Source: Escherichia coli (GTDB lineage Bacteria > Pseudomonadota > Gammaproteobacteria > Enterobacterales > Enterobacteriaceae). From it: a DNA stretch of 36,551 bases. The stretch lies in NCBI RefSeq assembly GCF_003334765.1, contig NZ_QOWT01000037.1; one strand, given 5' to 3'. A program made the position numbers and the translations under genes. The first letter of the stretch is position 1, and each line of letters opens with the position of its first letter. A model generated the notes under the pieces. That model worked only from the letters and a program-made list of their open reading frames with translations. It was not told where the DNA came from and did no database searches. Positions 1 to 10,772 of this stretch are shown one piece after another.

Positions 1-928
1 TAAGCGTAACCGACAGGTTCTCCTTCATACCATATTAAATTTTTCCAGGTATTGCCGCTGCCTTATTTCGTCCCATAAAGGAAAACTCATCTGGGTTTCT
101 GACAAATACGCGAAACTCACAGCCCCTCAATATCAACCACACGTTGTAAGCCGGTAATACCTGAAAATCAGCCTATTACCGCCCACGCCTCCGGCACCAT
201 TCCCTTTTGATTTCGAATTCTTTGTTGTCGCTATACCGCTTAATGTTCCCGGTCCTCCGGTGCAGATAACACCGGACTTATCGTAGCGCTGGCTAAAAGT
301 TCAGGTGACCAGAAGGAAGCAGGAACACGATCGTAAAGTTTGCGGTCAGTTCCGTCAGTCGGTGGGCAACCGCAGAGTTACGGGCTTCCAGGTCCACAGG
401 AGTGAGTCTATAACGCGTGTGAAAAATCATTTTTTCTGGCGTTGACAGAACACATTACAGGCTGCCACTTACCCGGTGTCCCGCAATACAGCCTTAGTGT
501 TCCGTTATCGGGGATCCGGACGCACCGCAACAACCGGGGAAGTATTTCTGGTTTAGAGCTGTGTCAAGAGGGATTTCTCAGCCCCTCACTCACCGGCTCA
601 GTCTCAGAGCAGGAGCATTAATACGCTCAGTTCATGTCTTATACAGGAATGGGCACAGGGGGAGCTGGCGTGTCACTGCTGATTTTACGCATCAGCGTTC
701 ATGTATTTGCACTCTGATACATGAACGATTCACAGCGCTCTGTTACCGGAGAGATTTACTCTCTTAGCTTACTCTGGCAAATCCTTTACGTTACTCTCTG
801 ATGACTTCTTATATTTATAATACCAATCAGACAGCCTTATCCCATCGGTGATACCGAAGCCGGTCTGCGCGCCGGCTGACCCGTCATCGTTAAACTATCA
901 TTCACCGATTTTCTGTGAGGATTTTATC

Positions 929-1297
929 GTGTCAGACACACTTTCCGGGACAACGCATCCCGATGACAATGACGACCATCCCTGGTGGGGACTACCCTGC
1001 ACAGTGACGCCCTGTTTCGGCGCCCGTCTGGTGCAGGAGGGTAACCGCCTGCATTACCTTGCCGACCGCGCCGGTATCAGAGGCCTGTTCAGCGATGCAG
1101 ATGCGTACCACCTGGACCAGGCCTTTCCGCTGCTGATGAAACAACTGGAACTCATGCTCACCAGCGGTGAACTGAATCCCCGCCATCAGCATACCGTCAC
1201 GCTGTATGCAAAAGGTCTGACCTGCAAAGCTGACACTCTCGGTAGCGGTGGTTACGTTTATCTGGCTGTTTATCCGACGCCCGAAACGAAAAAGTAA
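929..1297 (+). CDS. CbeA/YeeU/YfjZ-family antitoxin of a type IV toxin-antitoxin pair
   Basis: ORF 848..1297 translation contains [37 protein letters not shown]..., typical of the YeeU/CbeA family (about 122 aa). In-frame GTG at 929 gives VSDTLSGTT... and a 122-aa product; the ATG at 848 would add a 27-aa extension. Paralog cannot be assigned. Confidence 0.8.
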
Positions 1298-1386
1298 ACC
1301 ACCGGAATAACCTTCTGCTCCGGCCTGGTGCTTTCACCACGCCACTTTTCCATTTTTCATCTCTGCATATCAGGAAAACCTTCAGT

Positions 1387-1761
1387 ATGAAAACATTACC
1401 CGATACACACGTACGGGAGGCATCGAGCTGCCCGTCTCCCGTCACCATCTGGCAGACTCTGCTCTCCCGACTACTGGGCCAGCATTACGGCCTTACACTG
1501 AATGACACACCGTTCGCCGATGAACGTGTGATTGAGCAGCATATTGAAGCTGGCATTTCACTGTGTGATGCGGTGAATTTTCTCGTGGAAAAATACGCGC
1601 TGGTGCGTACCGACCAGCCGGGATTCAGCACTTGTCCCCGCTCTCAGTTAATAAACAGTATTGATATCCTCCGGGCTCGCAGGGCGACCGGCCTGATGAC
1701 CCGCGACAATTACAGAACGGTAAATAACATTACCCTGGGTAAGCATCCGGAGAAACGATGA
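1387..1761 (+). CDS. CbtA/YeeV/YpjF/YkfI-family toxin (cytoskeleton-targeting, inhibits FtsZ/MreB)
   Basis: 124-aa [11 protein letters not shown]...[52 protein letters not shown]... matches the CbtA toxin family as recalled; sits directly downstream of the antitoxin gene. Confidence 0.85.
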
Positions 1762-2246
1762 AACTTTCCCTGATGCTGGAAGCCGACAGAATTAATGTGC
1801 AGGCACTGAACATGGGGCGAATTGTCGTTGACGTCGATGGTGTTAATCTCACTGAACTGATTAACAAGGTCGCTGAAAACGGTTATTCACTCCGCGTGGT
1901 GGAGGAATCCGACCAACAGTCAACCTGCACACTACCACCGTTTGCAACCCTTGCCGGCATACGCTGCAGTACCGCACATATCACGGAAAAGGATAACGCC
2001 TGGCTGTACTCGCTGTCGCATCAGACCAGTGACGTTGGTGAATCAGAATGGATTCATTTCACAGGTAGCGGATATCTGTTACGTACCGATGCGTGGTCAT
2101 ATCCGGTTCTGCGGCTTAAACGCCTGGGGCTGTCAAAAACGTTCCGTCGTCTGGTTATCACACTTACCCGACGTTATGGCGTCAGTCTCATTCATCTGGA
2201 TGCCAGCGCTGAATGCCTGCCGGGTTTACCCACTTTCAACTGGTAA
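1758..2246 (+). CDS. YeeW-like cryptic-prophage protein
   Basis: 162-aa ORF whose start overlaps the toxin stop (ATGA at 1758-1761); position and sequence are consistent with the yeeW-type gene that follows cbtA in CP4-like elements. Confidence 0.6.
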
Positions 2247-2257
2247 CCAGGAACAAC

Positions 2258-2455
2258 ATGAAATCATTAACCACGGAAACCGCACTGGATATTCTGATTG
2301 CGTGGCTGCAGGACAATATCGACTGCGAATCGGGAATTATCTTTGACAACAATGAGGATAAAACGGATTCAGCAGCACTGTTGCCCTGTATCGAACAGGC
2401 CAGAGAGGATATCCGTACCCTGCGCCAACTGCAGCTTCAGCACCAGAACCGGTGA
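2258..2455 (+). CDS. small hypothetical prophage-associated protein (65 aa)
   Basis: ATG at 2258 preceded by aggaac; product MKSLTTETALDILIAWLQDNIDCESG...; the longer ORF-track start at 2213 overlaps the upstream gene. Family not assigned. Confidence 0.4.
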   Translation: MKSLTTETALDILIAWLQDNIDCESGIIFDNNEDKTDSAALLPCIEQAREDIRTLRQLQLQHQNR

Positions 2456-2932
2456 GTCTTACTCACCAGACTTCATTCCACTGACGCCAGCCTGAACAGG
2501 GCTGGCATTTTCATTTATCTGCAAAAAGGAATATCGATTATGTCTGATATCACAGCCTACCGTCCGGAAGTGGTCAACGAGAATACGGACGTTATCTGCT
2601 CAACCAGCATCCGCCGCATTCTGGCTGTACGAAAGAGTTCACTGCTGCAAATCGACACAATTATCCGGCATCAAGTGAGCGATATCAGTTAACAGATATA
2701 GATGGAGAAGATGCTTTTATCCGGATTGGTTCTATCGCGATGGTGCGAGTACTACTTGATGCAATGAAGCCTGTCGAGGAAGATGACGAGTAACAGAGCT
2801 CGGTATCTCAATCAGGAGCTGATTGTCCTGGTTCGATGCCGAAAACCAGTGATTTTTCGTGTTGGTATCTGTGTTGGTATAAGATGATATTGTTTATTAT
2901 TAACAATTTTAAATCATGAGGTTAAGTCACAT

Positions 2933-2970
2933 GTTTGAGTCCGGCCTTCGCACCTTCGCACCTTCGCACC
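2933..2970. repeat. tRNA-Leu (leuX) 3'-end-like segment followed by 3 tandem copies of cttcgcac; probable island att remnant
   Basis: tttGAGTCCGGCCTTCGCACC resembles the T-arm/acceptor end of tRNA-Leu(CAA) as I recall it (GGTTCGAGTCCGGCCTTCGGCACCA); the 8-mer cttcgcac repeats at 2946-2953, 2954-2961 and 2962-2969. Confidence 0.5.
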
Positions 2971-3172
2971 ATCGGAACATCAATAGACATCAACGGACGT
3001 TTTTTTATGACTGAAATCCGCGCCACACAAGGCTTTTCGCTATTTTTCGCTCAACCTAAGTCAACCTACATCAACTTACTGATGTGGATACAGCTACAGC
3101 TGCGGCTATACCCCGATTCGATAATGTTTGTACCCACACAAAACCCTTGAAAGGCTACAAGGCTGAAATTGT

Positions 3173-3657
3173 CTAAACCATAGAGATGATTTTTATGATC
3201 CAGTCTTTCTCTTGTTGAGATAGTTCCAGTTTGCTCACTCGTGTTAAGAAGGTATTGATCACCTGAACATCCGAATTGGTGAGCCTATTTAATAGAGCGG
3301 GTGGTATACCTTTACTAACAATCGCTTTGCGGTGACTTTCGTAGTTTTTATTACTCATTGTTGATCCTAAAAAATCATTGTATGGCGGCATTGATCGTTT
3401 CCAGCAACCTTTACTTACTCACTTCGAACTGCATCCTCGTAGACAGTTCCACTACAATAATCGAAAAGGCGCGGATGTCCATTCAGGTATCCCGCTAATA
3501 CGTATAGCAATAACAATGGCTTATGCGGCGCGCGCTGTTCACCCTTGTGCCAGATTTTTATATTGGCAATTGCCTGCTGTAGCGATTTACTGGAAGCTAT
3601 TGATATCCCTGGCAGTGAAATAATTGCGATCATGCTCGCAAATTTTCTGCTGTTCAA
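3173..3657 (-). pseudogene. frameshifted gene of unknown function
   Basis: Two same-strand ORFs (3415..3657 and 3173..3391). The downstream frame is open from 3418, immediately after the upstream stop at 3415-3417, so a single frameshift in the ttacttactc tract would fuse them into a protein of about 160 aa. Confidence 0.35.
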
Positions 3658-3736
3658 GCCTGCAAGTGAAGATATATTACCTTGATCTCATTTGTTTTTT
3701 TGCTGCCTGTTCTGAGAACGTATAAGGACATTCTCC

Positions 3737-4387
3737 ATGAATAAACTCCCTGATCATCTTCCGCGGCGGTATATCATCGAAGCTATCCATTTATGGGATG
3801 CGGGAGAAACTCATCAGTTCCAGCCTGCGCGGTTGTATGAGATTGAATATCATGGCCGACGTTACCCCTCGAAGGCGATTGCTGGCATCGCAGCGACATT
3901 GATGACGGGGACGCAATTTACCCCTGCGGATTTCACCGGCGGAATAAAATCTAAATGTGTCAAGCTACTCATAGAGCAGGGATTTCATATTCATCTGGAT
4001 AAAGCCGCTGCGGCTCCCATAGCCGACGTTCTGTTCCCGGATGAGTTGCCGTCGCAGGAGACATACCTTGAAGGTGCGGCGATAAAGGTGACAGTAAACC
4101 GCTATGAACGCGATAAAAAGGCCCGAGATAAAGCGGTCGAACATCATGGATGCCAGTGCAACGTATGCGGTGTTGATCTGGTGAAGATCTATGGTGATAT
4201 CGCTGAAGGCTTTATCCATGTGCATCACCTGGTGCCGCTGTCAGCCATTAAAGAGGATTACCAGCTGGATCCAGTTAATGATTTGCTGCCTGTGTACCCT
4301 AATTGCCATGCGATGTTGCACCGACGCAAACCACCGTTTACGCCGGGGCAGTTAAAAGCGCTGATGGATGCGAATAAATCAAATTAA
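3737..4387 (+). CDS. HNH endonuclease, McrA-like C-terminal nuclease domain with an unassigned ~100-aa N-terminal domain
   Basis: 216-aa ORF; the C-terminus has HHGCQCNVCG...IHVHHLVPLS...YPNCHAMLH, a classic HNH (beta-beta-alpha-Me) motif resembling the McrA nuclease domain. aggaca lies upstream of the ATG. Confidence 0.7.
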   Translation: MNKLPDHLPRRYIIEAIHLWDAGETHQFQPARLYEIEYHGRRYPSKAIAGIAATLMTGTQFTPADFTGGIKSKCVKLLIEQGFHIHLDKAAAAPIADVLFPDELPSQETYLEGAAIKVTVNRYERDKKARDKAVEHHGCQCNVCGVDLVKIYGDIAEGFIHVHHLVPLSAIKEDYQLDPVNDLLPVYPNCHAMLHRRKPPFTPGQLKALMDANKSN

Positions 4388-4394
4388 TGAACGC

Positions 4395-5375
4395 TCACCT
4401 TTCGCGCCAAAACTGCAAAATTGCTTCTACAAACTTGTCAGAAATAATCCCCCGACGGGCTGCCGTGCTGAAATGACTGCTTCGCAGTGCCGTCGTCCAG
4501 TTCTCCGGTGACCGGTACGCTGAACCGTAATATCCCGTGCTTAAATCGTCCGGGTCTTCATCAGGCGCGTTCGTCAGTCCTCTTTCACCTTGTTGCTGGA
4601 AGTCGACGAAAATAATATTGGCTAAAACATTATTTTGATAATTGCCATAAATAACTTCATACGCATGAGGGAAATTTTCTTTCCAGTACCAGGTGGTATC
4701 GCCGCAAAACCACGGTGCGTCAGTAATATTATTAAGCTGAGAATGGTATTGTTTTAGATCCCTACGAAAGGCTTCAACCATATGATTAAAGTGTTGAGGG
4801 TGTGACGCGTAGTCACTGGTCATTAAGTCAAATTCGCCTTGCATCCAGCATACGCCGAGGAATTTGTTATGCGGATTTTTTGCCAGTGCGGCTCGCGTTC
4901 TGCTGACTAAATCCTGGTATAGCGGAGTATCCGTTCCCCAACGACAAGCATCATGGCTGGCTCCGTGCCGTTCTGAATATGTCCCTTCGCTGCCCGCGGT
5001 AAAAGCCGATCCGCCACGGCAACACGGAACGATGAGAACCCCTGCATTATCAGGAATAAAGGGCAGTAATTTCCGTGCTATATGCAGTGCCTGGCCAACG
5101 GTGCCGTACTGTGTTTGATGATTCGTTGCCAGAGGATGGTGATAACCCTGCATATCCTGAACATCGTGTGGGCAGTGAGTCAGTGGAATAATGTCGTTAA
5201 AGTGACATGACGGGCCTCCGGGATGCGTATGCGCAAATCTCGCTAATTGTTTAATTCTGGGATGAGGCGCATCTTCCCTGTCCGGTAATGGCAGTCCTTC
5301 GCCATACGCCATGGCATTAGACTGACCAGCAACGGTAAGAATATAGTAATAATCAGGCGATATTATTGCGTTCAT
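4395..5375 (-). CDS. nanS: 9-O-acetyl-N-acetylneuraminate esterase
   Basis: ORF 4395..5402 matches NanS/YjhS; start placed at the internal ATG (MNAIISPDYYYILTVAGQSNA...) for a 326-aa product. Confidence 0.9.
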   Translation of the reverse strand: MNAIISPDYYYILTVAGQSNAMAYGEGLPLPDREDAPHPRIKQLARFAHTHPGGPSCHFNDIIPLTHCPHDVQDMQGYHHPLATNHQTQYGTVGQALHIARKLLPFIPDNAGVLIVPCCRGGSAFTAGSEGTYSERHGASHDACRWGTDTPLYQDLVSRTRAALAKNPHNKFLGVCWMQGEFDLMTSDYASHPQHFNHMVEAFRRDLKQYHSQLNNITDAPWFCGDTTWYWKENFPHAYEVIYGNYQNNVLANIIFVDFQQQGERGLTNAPDEDPDDLSTGYYGSAYRSPENWTTALRSSHFSTAARRGIISDKFVEAILQFWRER

Positions 5376-5439: not shown

Positions 5440-6546
5440 TTAGTTTTGTACTGTGACTTTATTATCCTTCACAGAAATTAAAACTGAATCCATCACTGCT
5501 TTGCCGCCTGCAGTTTCACCGCCAATAATTAATAAACTATTATTCCAGGGCAATGATACTCCGTAGGCCCGACCTTGCGATAATTCACCCGATTTATCCC
5601 ATTTCCCGTTATACCAAAGATGAATATCAGCGCTATATGATTTTTTCAGGCCTTCATGCGCATAGTTCTTACCGTTCTGGTAATTTTCTCGTGAACCTTT
5701 GAATCCGGCCCCTCCAGCAAATATAAGAGAATCATTGCTTATCCCCGCAAAACCGCCAGCGACGCCATCTGGTGATGAGACGGGATCAAGCTTATTCCAT
5801 TTTAAATTATCACCGGTGAAGTCAAGTTCAAATACGGCATCCGTTCGCAATCCTGGTTTGGCTTCGCCATTAATAAGCCAGGTTTTATCACCTTTATTCA
5901 CAACCGCCGCACCAGCCGTTCCGTACCAGGGAGATTCGCCAGCGTAACTCCATTGCTGTGTTGAGGGATCAAAAGACAACAGAAACTTATTGAAGAAATA
6001 ATCTTCTGCTTTTTTGTCAAAATAGTAGGCGTTGATTTTATCTATAGCGGTTGAATCTTTTCCAGCTTCGTTGAGATCTTCAAAATAGCCATTGAAGATA
6101 TTCTGGTTAACACCGCCAGTAACATAAGCCTTGCCGTTGTGTACAAAAGTCACATGGCCCGCCATGCCCATCGGCGCGTGCGACATCAATTTAACCCAGC
6201 TATTGGTTTTGGGGTTGTATTTGTGTACGTCATTAAATACCTGAGTCAAGCCCTCGCTGTTTTTGCCAATGCCGCCAAACACATACAGATTGCCATCAAT
6301 AAATGCAGAGGTTGCTTGATCTCTCGGTCCGCCAGGGAATGCAGCTAACGCTGTCCATCTTTTATCTTTGGCCTGTGTATCCAGCTTGTACCATGCCGTA
6401 CCTGCGCTACCTAAACCAATGTAGACAGTGTCGTTATCAATTGCTCCGGTACCACTTTTAAATGGCACAGGAGTTTCCGGTAATACAGACGCGTTTGCGG
6501 CAAATGAAGCCATTATGATAGTAAGCGCCGTTATTGTTTTATTCAT
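5440..6546 (-). CDS. nanM: N-acetylneuraminate mutarotase (Kelch-repeat periplasmic protein)
   Basis: ORF 5440..6654 matches NanM/YjhT; start placed at MNKTITALTIIMASFAANA (signal peptide) for 368 aa. Confidence 0.9.
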   Translation of the reverse strand: MNKTITALTIIMASFAANASVLPETPVPFKSGTGAIDNDTVYIGLGSAGTAWYKLDTQAKDKRWTALAAFPGGPRDQATSAFIDGNLYVFGGIGKNSEGLTQVFNDVHKYNPKTNSWVKLMSHAPMGMAGHVTFVHNGKAYVTGGVNQNIFNGYFEDLNEAGKDSTAIDKINAYYFDKKAEDYFFNKFLLSFDPSTQQWSYAGESPWYGTAGAAVVNKGDKTWLINGEAKPGLRTDAVFELDFTGDNLKWNKLDPVSSPDGVAGGFAGISNDSLIFAGGAGFKGSRENYQNGKNYAHEGLKKSYSADIHLWYNGKWDKSGELSQGRAYGVSLPWNNSLLIIGGETAGGKAVMDSVLISVKDNKVTVQN

Positions 6547-6565: not shown

Positions 6566-7282
6566 CTACAGTTTAAATGACACACCAATGCGATAACTGT
6601 TTTCCGATAAATTATCTCTGCCGTTGTAAACACCCTGACGGTCAAGGTAGTCATATTCTATGTATGGCGTAATATCGGGCGTCATATGGTATTGTAGAAC
6701 AAATGCATTTTCCGTCGCCCATTTCTTATGGTTTGCATAGCGATAATCGTTCTGTTTACTGTATAGCGTCGTTTGCCATGCGAAGGTGAAATCACTATTA
6801 ATATGGTAAGTGACATATCCATCCCAACGATGAACGTTATCACGAGACATATCACCAGATAAGTCTTGTTGTCGGTAAGCTTTCCAGTCGTAACGATAGC
6901 GAATGCCAAAATTAAGATCTTTTGTCGCGTCCCAGGACAGTTTTACGTAGGGTCCGTAGCGTGTGCCATTGCTGCTAAAATGCGTTAACATTCCCGGGCG
7001 CACCGTCCATTGATCATCAAGTTTAATCGCGTAATTAACTTCAACCTGAACATCATTGAGTGCGGCATTTTCCTTTTTATTATCATGAATGGTATTCCAG
7101 GTATTACTTTCCATGCTTGCCCACCATCCATTTTGCCATCCCTCACTGACTTTGAGTCGAGTCTCATAGGCGTGGCTTCCACTACGATATCCACCACGTA
7201 CGTCCAGTGTCGCAGCCTGAGAAATTAATGGGGACGAAAAGCACAGTAATAATACGCTAGAAAGTATTTTAGCCTTTTTCAT
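6566..7282 (-). CDS. nanC: N-acetylneuraminic acid outer-membrane channel (KdgM family)
   Basis: ORF 6566..7291 matches NanC/YjhA (MKKAKILSSVLLLCFSSPLISQAATLDVRGGYRSG...); ATG at 7282 chosen, GTG at 7291 is an alternative. Confidence 0.9.
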   Translation of the reverse strand: MKKAKILSSVLLLCFSSPLISQAATLDVRGGYRSGSHAYETRLKVSEGWQNGWWASMESNTWNTIHDNKKENAALNDVQVEVNYAIKLDDQWTVRPGMLTHFSSNGTRYGPYVKLSWDATKDLNFGIRYRYDWKAYRQQDLSGDMSRDNVHRWDGYVTYHINSDFTFAWQTTLYSKQNDYRYANHKKWATENAFVLQYHMTPDITPYIEYDYLDRQGVYNGRDNLSENSYRIGVSFKL

Positions 7283-7707
7283 AAATTTCACTCATTTGTA
7301 GGATACAGAAAGCAATACAAAGCCCGCATAAACAATTAGCATTTATGTTGTGTAATATTTTTTTGCCAGACTTATAGTGTCTTTGGCAACCGGTAGCTGT
7401 ATTTTATATTTTTTGTATAATATCTCCTGTGAAAAATCTCTTTCCACATTATTTAAATAAACAGAGGGCCAGATTAAATACCTGAGTATAAAATCTCTGC
7501 TGATGTTTAATTGATTTGAATTTTCGTAAGCTATATCGCTTACTCAATCCATTTTACCCAGAGTCATAAAATAGAGTGTCTGTTGATCTCATTTTCATAT
7601 TCCTTTCAGACTGAAGTGCGTTTTCATCACCCGATGAGAAAGAACTGAAGTGATGTTTGCCATAGATTACGAGATGCCCAGTCTCATTGACTATCGCGGT
7701 GCACCTT

Positions 7708-7722
7708 TATACCTGTTATACC
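7708..7722. promoter_or_regulatory. NanR operator (GGTATA repeats) with adjacent Dam GATC site
   Basis: tatacctgttatacc is the reverse complement of GGTATAACAGGTATA; GATC follows at 7724-7727. It lies about 420 bp upstream of nanC and about 1 kb upstream of fimB, matching the known NanR site controlling nanC and fimB. Confidence 0.7.
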
Positions 7723-8735
7723 AGATCAAAAATCACGCAATCCATACAACAAAACCAGATTTGCAATTCGTGTCACAAAATATGTCGATCTTTTCCTAAG
7801 AAGCAGATGCCATGTGAAGACAGACGAACACTTGCATTGGTCTTCAAAAACTAAAGGTTTTCTTTTAACAATCTGTTTTGTAAATAATTTATTTAGAATC
7901 TAAACAAAGAAAGCTTTGCAAGCTAACTCAGTGAGCTTGGTGAAAATAAGTGTTTACCCGCCATCAGGCTGAGTATAATTCTCATCATGAAATATGTTTC
8001 TTGGTTTGTGGCTTGTAACTGGTCACTCCTGATGTCGATCTGGAGAGGCTTGTTGATGTTGGTGTTTTCAGGATGATGTTTCACTTAGTTTGTTTGCCGT
8101 ATCGCCCGGCGAATAGCTGTGATTGAGGAAGGTTTAAGTCGTAGTGACCAAAGCCATAGTTACCAACGGATGTAGATGAAAAAGCGTCGCCTGCGTTCCC
8201 CCATATCTCCAGGATAAAAGGGAATGTAACAATCTCATGGCCTAAGCTGACGAACCAGGCAGGAATAATCGCTAGGGATCTAAGAATTAGCATGATAATA
8301 GCCACTAAAAAATTACTGCGTTCCATGAAATAGCCATTTTGTGGCAAATGCAGTTGACTAATAATGTCATATGTGAGACGGCTAGTTGAACGAATATTAA
8401 ATTTTGCTGAATTTTTTATGTTGATTTTACTTGTTACAGAACATATCACATGATATATAGATAAGATTAGTTGCATTAATGATGAGGGTTATTATTCGAT
8501 TCGTATCAGATTTATAAATATATAAAGGTACATAGCATGCAAGAGCATGGCGTTTGTATGGCAAAGTTATTATAAGTAACTATCGCTACTCCATTTAAGT
8601 TCACTCAGAAGAACTGGTCCACTTACGTTAGTTATTAAGCAAACGTTCGCTTTTATAAACATAATCAGGATTAAAATGTTGGATTATTGCTAACCCAGCA
8701 CAGCTAGTGCGCGTCTGTAATTATAAGGGAAAACG

Positions 8736-9338
8736 ATGAAGAATAAGGCTGATAACAAAAAAAGGAACTTCCTGACCCATAGTGAAATCGAATCACTCCT
8801 TAAAGCAGCAAATACCGGGCCTCATGCAGCACGTAATTATTGTCTGACTTTGCTTTGTTTTATTCATGGTTTCCGGGCGAGTGAAATTTGTCGATTGAGG
8901 ATTTCGGATATTGATCTTAAGGCAAAGTGTATCTATATCCATCGATTAAAAAAAGGCTTTTCAACAACGCACCCGCTATTGAACAAAGAAGTTCAGGCTT
9001 TAAAAAACTGGTTGAGTATCCGTACTTCGTACCCGCATGCTGAGAGCGAATGGGTATTTTTATCGCGTAAGGGGAATCCGCTTTCTCGGCAACAGTTTTA
9101 CCATATTATCTCGACTTCCGGTGGTAATGCCGGGTTGTCACTGGAGATTCATCCGCACATGTTACGCCATTCGTGTGGTTTTGCTTTGGCGAATATGGGA
9201 ATAGATACGCGACTTATCCAGGATTATCTTGGGCATCGCAATATTCGTCATACTGTCTGGTATACCGCCAGCAATGCAGGGCGTTTTTACGGCATCTGGG
9301 ATAGGGCCAGAGGACGACAGCGTCACGCTGTTTTATAG
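8736..9338 (+). CDS. fimB: type 1 fimbriae switch recombinase FimB (tyrosine recombinase, ON<->OFF)
   Basis: 200-aa ORF MKNKADNKKRNFLTHSEIESLLKAANTG... with C-terminal RHSCGF...LGHRNIRHTVWYT recombinase motifs. Confidence 0.95.
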   Translation: MKNKADNKKRNFLTHSEIESLLKAANTGPHAARNYCLTLLCFIHGFRASEICRLRISDIDLKAKCIYIHRLKKGFSTTHPLLNKEVQALKNWLSIRTSYPHAESEWVFLSRKGNPLSRQQFYHIISTSGGNAGLSLEIHPHMLRHSCGFALANMGIDTRLIQDYLGHRNIRHTVWYTASNAGRFYGIWDRARGRQRHAVL

Positions 9339-9814: not shown

Positions 9815-10411
9815 GTGAGTAAACGTCGTTATCTTACCGGTAAAGAAGTTCAGGCCATGATGCAGGCGGTTTGTTACGGGGCAACGGGAGCCAGAGATTA
9901 TTGTCTTATTCTGTTGGCATATCGGCATGGGATGCGTATTAGTGAACTGCTTGATCTGCATTATCAGGACCTTGACCTTAATGAAGGTCGAATAAATATT
10001 CGCCGACTGAAGAACGGATTTTCTACCGTTCACCCGTTACGTTTTGATGAGCGTGAAGCCGTGGAACGCTGGACCCAGGAACGTGCTAACTGGAAAGGCG
10101 CTGACCGGACCGACGCTATATTTATTTCTCGCCGCGGGAGTCGGCTTTCTCGCCAGCAGGCCTATCGCATTATTCGCGATGCCGGTATTGAAGCTGGAAC
10201 CGTAACGCAGACTCATCCTCATATGTTAAGGCATGCTTGCGGTTATGAACTGGCGGAGCGTGGTGCAGATACCCGTTTAATTCAGGATTATCTCGGGCAT
10301 CGAAATATTCGCCATACTGTGCGTTATACCGCCAGTAATGCTGCTCGTTTTGCCGGATTATGGGAAAGAAATAATCTTATAAACGAAAAATTAAAAAGAG
10401 AAGAGGTTTAA
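9815..10411 (+). CDS. fimE: type 1 fimbriae switch recombinase FimE (ON->OFF biased)
   Basis: 198-aa ORF (V)SKRRYLTGKEVQAMMQAV... with GTG start at 9815; paralogous to FimB. Confidence 0.95.
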   Translation: MSKRRYLTGKEVQAMMQAVCYGATGARDYCLILLAYRHGMRISELLDLHYQDLDLNEGRINIRRLKNGFSTVHPLRFDEREAVERWTQERANWKGADRTDAIFISRRGSRLSRQQAYRIIRDAGIEAGTVTQTHPHMLRHACGYELAERGADTRLIQDYLGHRNIRHTVRYTASNAARFAGLWERNNLINEKLKREEV

Positions 10412-10458
10412 TTTAACTTATTGATAGTAAAGGTAAAAAACAAATAAATACAAGACAA

Positions 10459-10772
10459 TTGGGGCCAAAACTGTCCATATCATAAATAAGTTACGTATTT
10501 TTCTCAAGCATAAAAATATTATAAAACGACAAAAAGCATCTAACTGTTTGATATGTAAATCATTTCTCTTGTAAATTAATTTCACATCACCTCCGCTAAA
10601 TGTAAAGCTAACGTTTCTGTGTCTCGAAGCAACTTCCTCATTCTTCTCTCCAAAAACCACCTCATGCAATATAAAAATCTATAAATAAAGATAACAATAG
10701 AATATAAAGCCAACAAATAAACTGAAAAAGTTTGTGCGCGATGCTTTCCTCTATGAGTCAAAATGGCCCCAA
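10459..10772. promoter_or_regulatory. fimS: fimS invertible phase-variation element (314 bp) flanked by 9-bp inverted repeats; phase-OFF as sequenced
   Basis: TTGGGGCCA at 10459-10467 and its reverse complement TGGCCCCAA at 10764-10772 lie exactly 314 bp apart, between fimE and fimA. Confidence 0.85.
10479..10507 (-). promoter_or_regulatory. fimA sigma-70 promoter inside fimS, oriented toward fimE
   Basis: On the minus strand: -35 TTGAGA (10507-10502), 17-bp spacer, -10 TATGAT (10484-10479), next to the fimE-proximal inverted repeat. No comparable promoter is seen on the plus strand near the fimA-proximal repeat. Confidence 0.6.

Follow-up and report, generated by a model that had tools for sequence, protein, structure and literature searches.

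The DNA between nanC and fimB of Escherichia coli raises the question of whether a pair of GGTATA repeats with a Dam methylation target beside them serves as an operator of NanR for both flanking genes, and whether the Dam target itself takes part in the control. We addressed this question in a 36,551-nt stretch of E. coli contig NZ_QOWT01000037.1 (assembly GCF_003334765.1), referred to here as the window. A preliminary description, made from the letters of the sequence, had placed a NanR operator with an adjacent GATC at 7708-7727 and had proposed that sialic acid (via NanR) and Dam methylation act through it on nanC and the distant fimB. It is established in K-12 that NanR controls nanC and fimB; there the operator, O_NR, ties sialic acid from the host, a signal of inflammation, to two responses of E. 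coli, namely uptake and processing of sialic acid via nanCMS, and lower phase switching of type 1 fimbriae via fimB. This link between sialic acid, nanCMS and fimB dates from K-12 work of two decades ago; what the window contributes is a non-K-12 strain with a complete, unaltered control region and intact nanCMS.

The genes flanking the site were identified as nanC and fimB, which bears out its placement in the long nanC-fimB regulatory region. The gene order is nanS-nanM-nanC, a spacer of about 1.45 kb, and fimB-fimE-fimS-fimA, with the following features:

4395-5375, minus strand: nanS, sialate O-acetyl esterase, intact (318 of 326 residues identical to full-length K-12 NanS)
5440-6546, minus strand: nanM, N-acetylneuraminate mutarotase (epimerase) (NCBIfam NF010730, E = 1.4e-180; annotation)
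6566-7282, minus strand: nanC, N-acetylneuraminate outer-membrane channel, first gene of nanCMS (open reading frame; annotated as such in K-12 and in a relative of 99.97% identity)
8736-9338, plus strand: fimB, tyrosine recombinase of the type 1 fimbrial switch and distal NanR target (NCBIfam NF007370, E = 2.1e-138; annotation)
9815-10411, plus strand: fimE
10459-10772: fimS invertible element, 314 bp, bounded by TTGGGGCCA inverted repeats

The nanC-fimB spacer occupies 7283-8735 (1453 bp) and was found in 5110 of 5426 complete E. coli genomes. It is 97% identical overall to that of K-12 MG1655, from which it differs by scattered substitutions, and 100% identical to that of many non-K-12 isolates. 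The window strain is not K-12, and homology to K-12 begins at 4392. The nanR and dam genes lie outside the window; because 5410 of the 5426 complete E. coli genomes carry nanR, its presence in the source genome is very likely.

A search of the whole window for GGTATAACAGGTATA, with two mismatches allowed, returned a single match, which was exact and lay on the minus strand at 7708-7722. On the plus strand the motif and its flank read TATACCTGTTATACC, then A, then GATC, and the sequence of 7700-7729 is tgcaccttTATACCTGTTATACCaGATCaa. Read along the minus strand, the order is GATC, a single T, GGTATA, ACA, GGTATA, AA, and GGTGCA, giving the following elements:

7700-7722, minus strand: predicted NanR operator O_NR (exact 15-mer match and sequence, identical to the K-12 nanC operator)
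7722-7717, minus strand: first hexamer of O_NR, GGTATA, followed by the linker ACA
7713-7708, minus strand: second hexamer, GGTATA, followed by the linker AA
7705-7700, minus strand: third hexamer, GGTGCA
7724-7727, unstranded: Dam target GATC, 1 nt from the first GGTATA repeat

The spacing between motif and GATC, earlier put at no more than 2 bp, is exactly 1 nt, and the interval 7708-7727 corresponds precisely to motif, spacer and GATC, confirming the coordinates and the description of the motif and the Dam site in the preliminary account. Two refinements can be made: the two perfect hexamers are followed by a degenerate third repeat (AA-GGTGCA, 7707-7700), and the block held in common with other operators extends over 27 bp (7703-7729). 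With its degenerate third repeat, the operator may be occupied by two NanR dimers, not three. As expected of a NanR operator, the site contains two or more direct GGTATA repeats with 2-3 nt between them, lies upstream of intact nanC-nanM-nanS on the same strand, and is identical to a characterised operator, the K-12 nanC O_NR. The GATC at 7724-7727 adjoins the regulator's footprint at a distance of 1 nt, as expected of a regulator-protected Dam site.

We considered whether the motif and the GATC co-occur by chance in AT-rich intergenic DNA and are functionless. The number of GATC sites in the window (139, against 133.9 expected) shows no enrichment, which is compatible with such a chance origin, and the meaning of the GATC at 7724-7727 therefore rests on homology and position rather than on density. 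The motif itself is another matter, as only 0.03 matches to GGTATAACAGGTATA with up to two mismatches are expected by chance, and three of 100 dinucleotide-preserving shuffles gave any. Its identity with the characterised K-12 site, the recurrence of the 27-bp block at nanA and nanX, and the recurrence of a 21-mer with a CRP-like site at a fixed distance upstream in dozens of enterobacterial species likewise speak against coincidence. Chance co-occurrence was rejected as refuted by these homology results, and we assign it a negligible probability.

Alignment with the K-12 nanC-fimB region, proposed earlier as a check, showed the operator, the GATC and about 90 flanking bases to match base for base. 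The window and K-12 are identical from about 7698 to 7795, an interval that holds the operator with its GATC, the 60 bases that follow, and a second GATC. The K-12 O_NR has the same locus, neighbouring genes, orientation, and distances to nanC and fimB (in the window, 426-440 nt from the operator to the nanC ATG and 1014-1028 nt to the fimB ATG), and differs only in its flanks, where K-12 has TT and the window CG at 7696-7697, 3 nt past the third repeat. The K-12 O_NR is reportedly the 'region 1' with a methylation-protected GATC between nanC (yjhA) and fimB in the work of El-Labany from 2003 and of Sohanpal from 2004 and 2007. Judged from its sequence, the window site is the K-12 O_NR with its GATC, unaltered, in another E. 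coli strain; it is already known, and its original assessment as a recognised system rather than a novelty was apt.

The window site was further aligned with the K-12 nanC, nanA and nanX (yjhB) operators, each read in the direction of the gene that it precedes, and one block was invariant across the four sequences:

7703-7729, minus strand: 27-bp block TTGATCTGGTATAACAGGTATAAAGGT

The operators of K-12 nanATEK-yhcH and nanXY (yjhBC), among them the (GGTATA)3 operator whose structural study is given in PMC8012715, thus share TTGATCTGGTATAACAGGTATAAAGGT, including the GATC, and its orientation relative to the downstream gene. They differ in the third repeat, which is a perfect GGTATA at nanA and nanX and GGTGCA at nanC, so that two rather than three strong dimer sites are expected at nanC. 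They also differ in placement, the K-12 nanA operator lying about 44-58 nt from its own ATG, and those of nanC and nanX being about 420-440 nt upstream of the respective ATG. Unlike the K-12 nanA and nanX operators, the nanC operator alone also serves fimB. Comparison of the K-12 DNA upstream of nanX (L003:3625-4058) with window positions 7283-7800 showed that the similarity fades soon after the operator. Enterobacterial NanR operator DNA was also encountered in assemblies labelled Bacteroides (metagenome-assembled), Methylobacterium mesophilicum and Chryseobacterium. These stray contigs (L020, whole 3317 bp; L047, whole 265 bp; L073:4006-4026) look like contamination or mis-binning; the flanks of L020 match the E. 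coli nanC type and those of L047 the nanX type.

The surroundings of O_NR contain the following predicted promoter and regulator sites:

7715-7723, minus strand: probable nanC extended -10, TGgTATAAC, formed from the first GGTATA (sequence and CRP-like spacing)
7777-7762, minus strand: CRP-like site TGTGAcacgaaTTGCA (8 of 10 CRP core positions, offset 49 from TATAAC)
7759-7781, minus strand: candidate O_NC1, a 23-bp NagC-type palindrome ATTTTGTGACACGAATTGCAAAT overlapping the CRP-like site (7728-7795 identical to K-12)
7787-7790, unstranded: second GATC of the control region, on the NagC side
7881-7893, minus strand: tentative IHF-like site AATAAATTATTTA, one mismatch to WATCAANNNNTTR
8287-8298, plus strand: SlyA operator O_SA1 TTAGCATGATAA, near the fimB promoter (exact match)

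The hexamer TATAAC within the proposed extended -10 matches TATAAT at five of six positions. With this element as the -10, nanC transcription would start at about 7708 (± 2) with a leader of about 426 nt, the centre of the CRP-like site TGTGAcacgaaTTGCA would lie about 61.5 bp upstream of the start, and the GATC, at about -19 to -16, would immediately precede the TG of the extended -10. K-12 nanA and nanX share with nanC a CRP-like site about 48-49 bp upstream of TATAAC, at offset 48 for nanA (AGTGAagcagaTCGCA) and at offset 49 for nanX. The comparison was extended to 92 operators, comprising the window, K-12 nanA, K-12 nanX, and 89 of the 90 exact 21-mer sites from species-representative genomes, almost all of Enterobacterales. 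The best CRP-like match within the 110 nt upstream was found at offset 48 or 49 in approximately 85 of the 92, with 8-9 of 10 core positions matched, and offset 49 was modal. Because of this fixed, class-I CRP-like spacing, we regard the evidence that TATAAC is the -10 as good; as the first repeat forms the extended -10, NanR would occlude both the nanC -10 and the start site. A generic scan of 7200-8800 for sigma-70 promoters and terminators found no promoter at the operator, and fewer matches than in shuffles; it missed the operator promoter for want of a -35. Its only promoter candidate, a weak one on the minus strand at 7446-7417, was rejected as the nanC promoter, since the conserved CRP-like spacing favours the extended -10. 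An Rfam scan of the whole window returned no match, including in the long nanC leader.

The palindrome at 7759-7781 is a candidate for the NagC site O_NC1 of K-12, and the embedding of the CRP-like site in it would let NagC compete with CRP. The IHF-like site is only tentative, given that the 48 matches to the WATCAANNNNTTR pattern in the window do not stand out from chance (40 expected); its position fits the reported binding of IHF between the two NagC sites in K-12. The sequence of O_SA1 is given in PMC3173223, where it lies inside the scanning mutations that cover -184 to -38 of the fimB start. With its exact match at 8287-8298 as a landmark, fimB transcription would begin near 8465-8475, and the centre of O_NR (7715) would lie at about -750 to -760.

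The spacer also contains an ATG-started open reading frame of 131 aa on the minus strand (8081-8476), whose DNA overlaps that of the SlyA/H-NS region upstream of fimB. Under the spacer match, a 'hypothetical protein' is annotated in some RefSeq genomes, and two 1-bp indels separate K-12 from the window in this stretch. The frame had no match among NCBIfam and PHROG families and was treated as probably spurious. Between the ribosome-binding region and the fimB ATG (approximately 8725-8735), an A-run carries a 1-bp deletion relative to K-12 (window GGGAAAACGATG, K-12 GGGAAAAACGATG).

The repeat structure of O_NR can be read against the biochemistry of NanR, an obligate dimer of the GntR family (PMC8012715). 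A (GGTATA)3 operator is occupied cooperatively by three NanR dimers, a (GGTATA)2 oligonucleotide is bound with similar affinity (KD approximately 25 nM) in two complexes, a single repeat is not bound, and Neu5Ac weakens binding (PMC8012715). Genomic SELEX in K-12 found NanR bound to the nanC-fimB spacer and upstream of nanATEK (PMC4797297). The regulation signs in that study are opposite to those in PMC3173223 and PMC8012715, and the latter two are followed here. fimB is described as activated by NanR and NagC via their own operators, independently of SlyA and H-NS (PMC3173223).

Taken with the features of the window, a mechanism can be proposed in which NanR dimers would bind the GGTATA repeats of O_NR cooperatively and N-acetylneuraminate would loosen this binding. 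[quoted passage not shown] Removal of NanR by sialic acid would then induce nanCMS and lower fimB, and fewer cells would switch type 1 fimbriae ON. We are highly confident that 7700-7722 is O_NR, a NanR operator orthologous and identical to the K-12 site, with the predicted occlusion of nanC and role in fimB expression; no sequence feature contradicts the assignment.

The part of this mechanism that concerns fimB could also be explained indirectly. The element would then consist of a nanC core promoter and its repressor, and fimB would follow the activity of the divergent nanC promoter through transcription-coupled supercoiling or RNA polymerase traffic, not through NanR as an activator. The overlap of the operator with the proposed nanC -10 and start site is in keeping with this view, as is the distance of about 750 bp to the fimB promoter, over which direct contact would require looping. 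Against it speaks K-12 work in which moving the sites closer reportedly gave stronger fimB activation. A mechanism of activation is given in none of PMC3173223, PMC8012715, PMC4797297 and PMC5155068, but NanR and NagC are called activators through their own operators in the first of these. We consider the indirect route unlikely and retain activation of fimB by NanR bound at O_NR as the working interpretation.

The second part of the question concerns the GATC. Its conservation was examined in complete E. coli genomes with 31-mer queries designed so that the tetranucleotide falls within every 28-base seed, as follows:

7724-7727, NanR side: GATC, the form of the window and K-12, in 4647 complete E. 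coli genomes
7724-7727, NanR side: GATCG, O157:H7 type, site kept, in 311 complete E. coli genomes
7724-7727, NanR side: GAAC, site lost and operator intact, in 9 complete E. coli genomes
7787-7790, NagC side: GATC in 3977 complete E. coli genomes
7787-7790, NagC side: GATA, Dam site lost, in 1027 complete E. coli genomes (about 20%)

The NanR-side GATC is thus kept in at least 4958 complete genomes. Loss at the two sites, which lie 60 bp apart, is asymmetric, with 9 of approximately 5000 genomes on the NanR side against 1027 on the NagC side. The conservation of the GATC in E. coli was rejected as evidence of selection, because the whole 31-mer is equally conserved and conservation alone is consequently not informative. 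Among the 90 exact operators from species-representative genomes, nearly all of which belong to other Enterobacterales, GATC was present at the homologous position in 49, and its TC was kept in 81. Operators without GATC have GGTC in Rahnella, GTTC, CATC or CGTC in Raoultella, TATC in Kluyvera, and TGTC in Silvania. All three K-12 operators have GATC, as does each Escherichia representative that was recovered. Since only 49 of the 90 operators carry it, the GATC is a lineage-conserved but not an obligatory part of the operator. These counts, by which the site is near-fixed in E. coli and not universal in enterobacterial NanR operators, are new here and bear modestly on whether Dam has any causal role.

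Under-methylation of the K-12 operator GATC in vivo was reportedly found to depend on NanR, in work by Sohanpal from 2004 that is summarised in PMC5155068. In that paper, the GATCs at the NanR operators of K-12 nanA, nanC and yjhB are likewise reported as methylation-protected, and the methylation level of NanR-operator GATCs shifts during long-term stationary phase (PMC5155068). In the window, the GATC in the promoter spacer (about -19 to -16) would be shielded from Dam while NanR is bound, as reported for K-12.

Such shielding may be all that happens, the GATC being a passive bystander that reports NanR occupancy and whose methylation has no effect on NanR binding, nanC or fimB; this reading competes with the Dam part of the interpretation only. 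Whole genera keep the operator with GGTC, GTTC, TATC or TGTC in place of GATC, and nine complete E. coli genomes combine GAAC with an intact operator, both of which favour a bystander. The loss of the NagC-side GATC in 1027 genomes points the same way. On the other hand, the retention of GATC throughout the recovered Escherichia representatives and at each of the three E. coli operators is less readily expected of a bystander, and its share among the exact operators (54%) is far above the approximately 6% expected with the two variable bases free, a comparison in which related species are non-independent samples. The position directly upstream of the extended -10 TG is also one where a methyl group could matter. 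Expression data fall on both sides, as a dam mutant at 72 h had 3- to 5-fold lower nanC and nanR transcripts, and unchanged nanA transcript (PMC5155068). The same paper states that a block of NanR binding by methylation has never been demonstrated (PMC5155068). On balance, we put the bystander reading at a little below an even chance. In the literature consulted, support for a Dam effect on fimB is limited to a one-line paraphrase in a review, and a causal role of Dam at nanC or fimB is not established. The original reading of the site as a NanR operator with a Dam GATC is therefore supported, and its statement that NanR modulates nanC and fimB agrees with the K-12 papers, whereas the statement that Dam methylation does so was too strong.

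In the Dam-dependent switches of pap (Lrp) and agn43 (OxyR), GATC similarly lies in or adjoins the regulator's footprint and is reported under-methylated when the regulator is bound. There the GATCs lie inside the binding sites, methylation blocks binding, and the state is heritable. At O_NR, by contrast, the GATC lies 1 nt outside the repeats, and the operators of many species have no GATC. A working epigenetic element at O_NR, in which Dam, NanR and RNA polymerase would compete and produce hysteresis or cell-to-cell heterogeneity in the induction of nanC and, by way of fimB, in fimbrial switching, appears improbable to us. If it did operate, the asymmetry of 9 against 1027 losses would reflect selection on the NanR-side site only, and the nine natural GAAC strains, such as AHM9C68I, would provide ready-made test cases.

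Several further observations concern the remainder of the window. Strain 13E0767 is 99.97% identical to the window over 2931-36550, and bases 1-2930 differ; its nanS is annotated as a truncated pseudogene (L099:4809-5375), in contrast to the intact nanS of the window. The DNA abutting the nanS stop codon (window 1-4391) is not K-12-like. An HNH endonuclease is encoded there (3737-4387), and it weakly matches type IV methyl-directed restriction enzymes. At approximately 3451-3600, a close relative's annotation has a fragment of a phosphorothioated-DNA-binding restriction endonuclease. On the fim side, two perfect IHF consensus sites are present at 10414-10426 and 10541-10553. The fimS element (10459-10772) has the same orientation as in the MG1655 reference sequence, which we take to be OFF.
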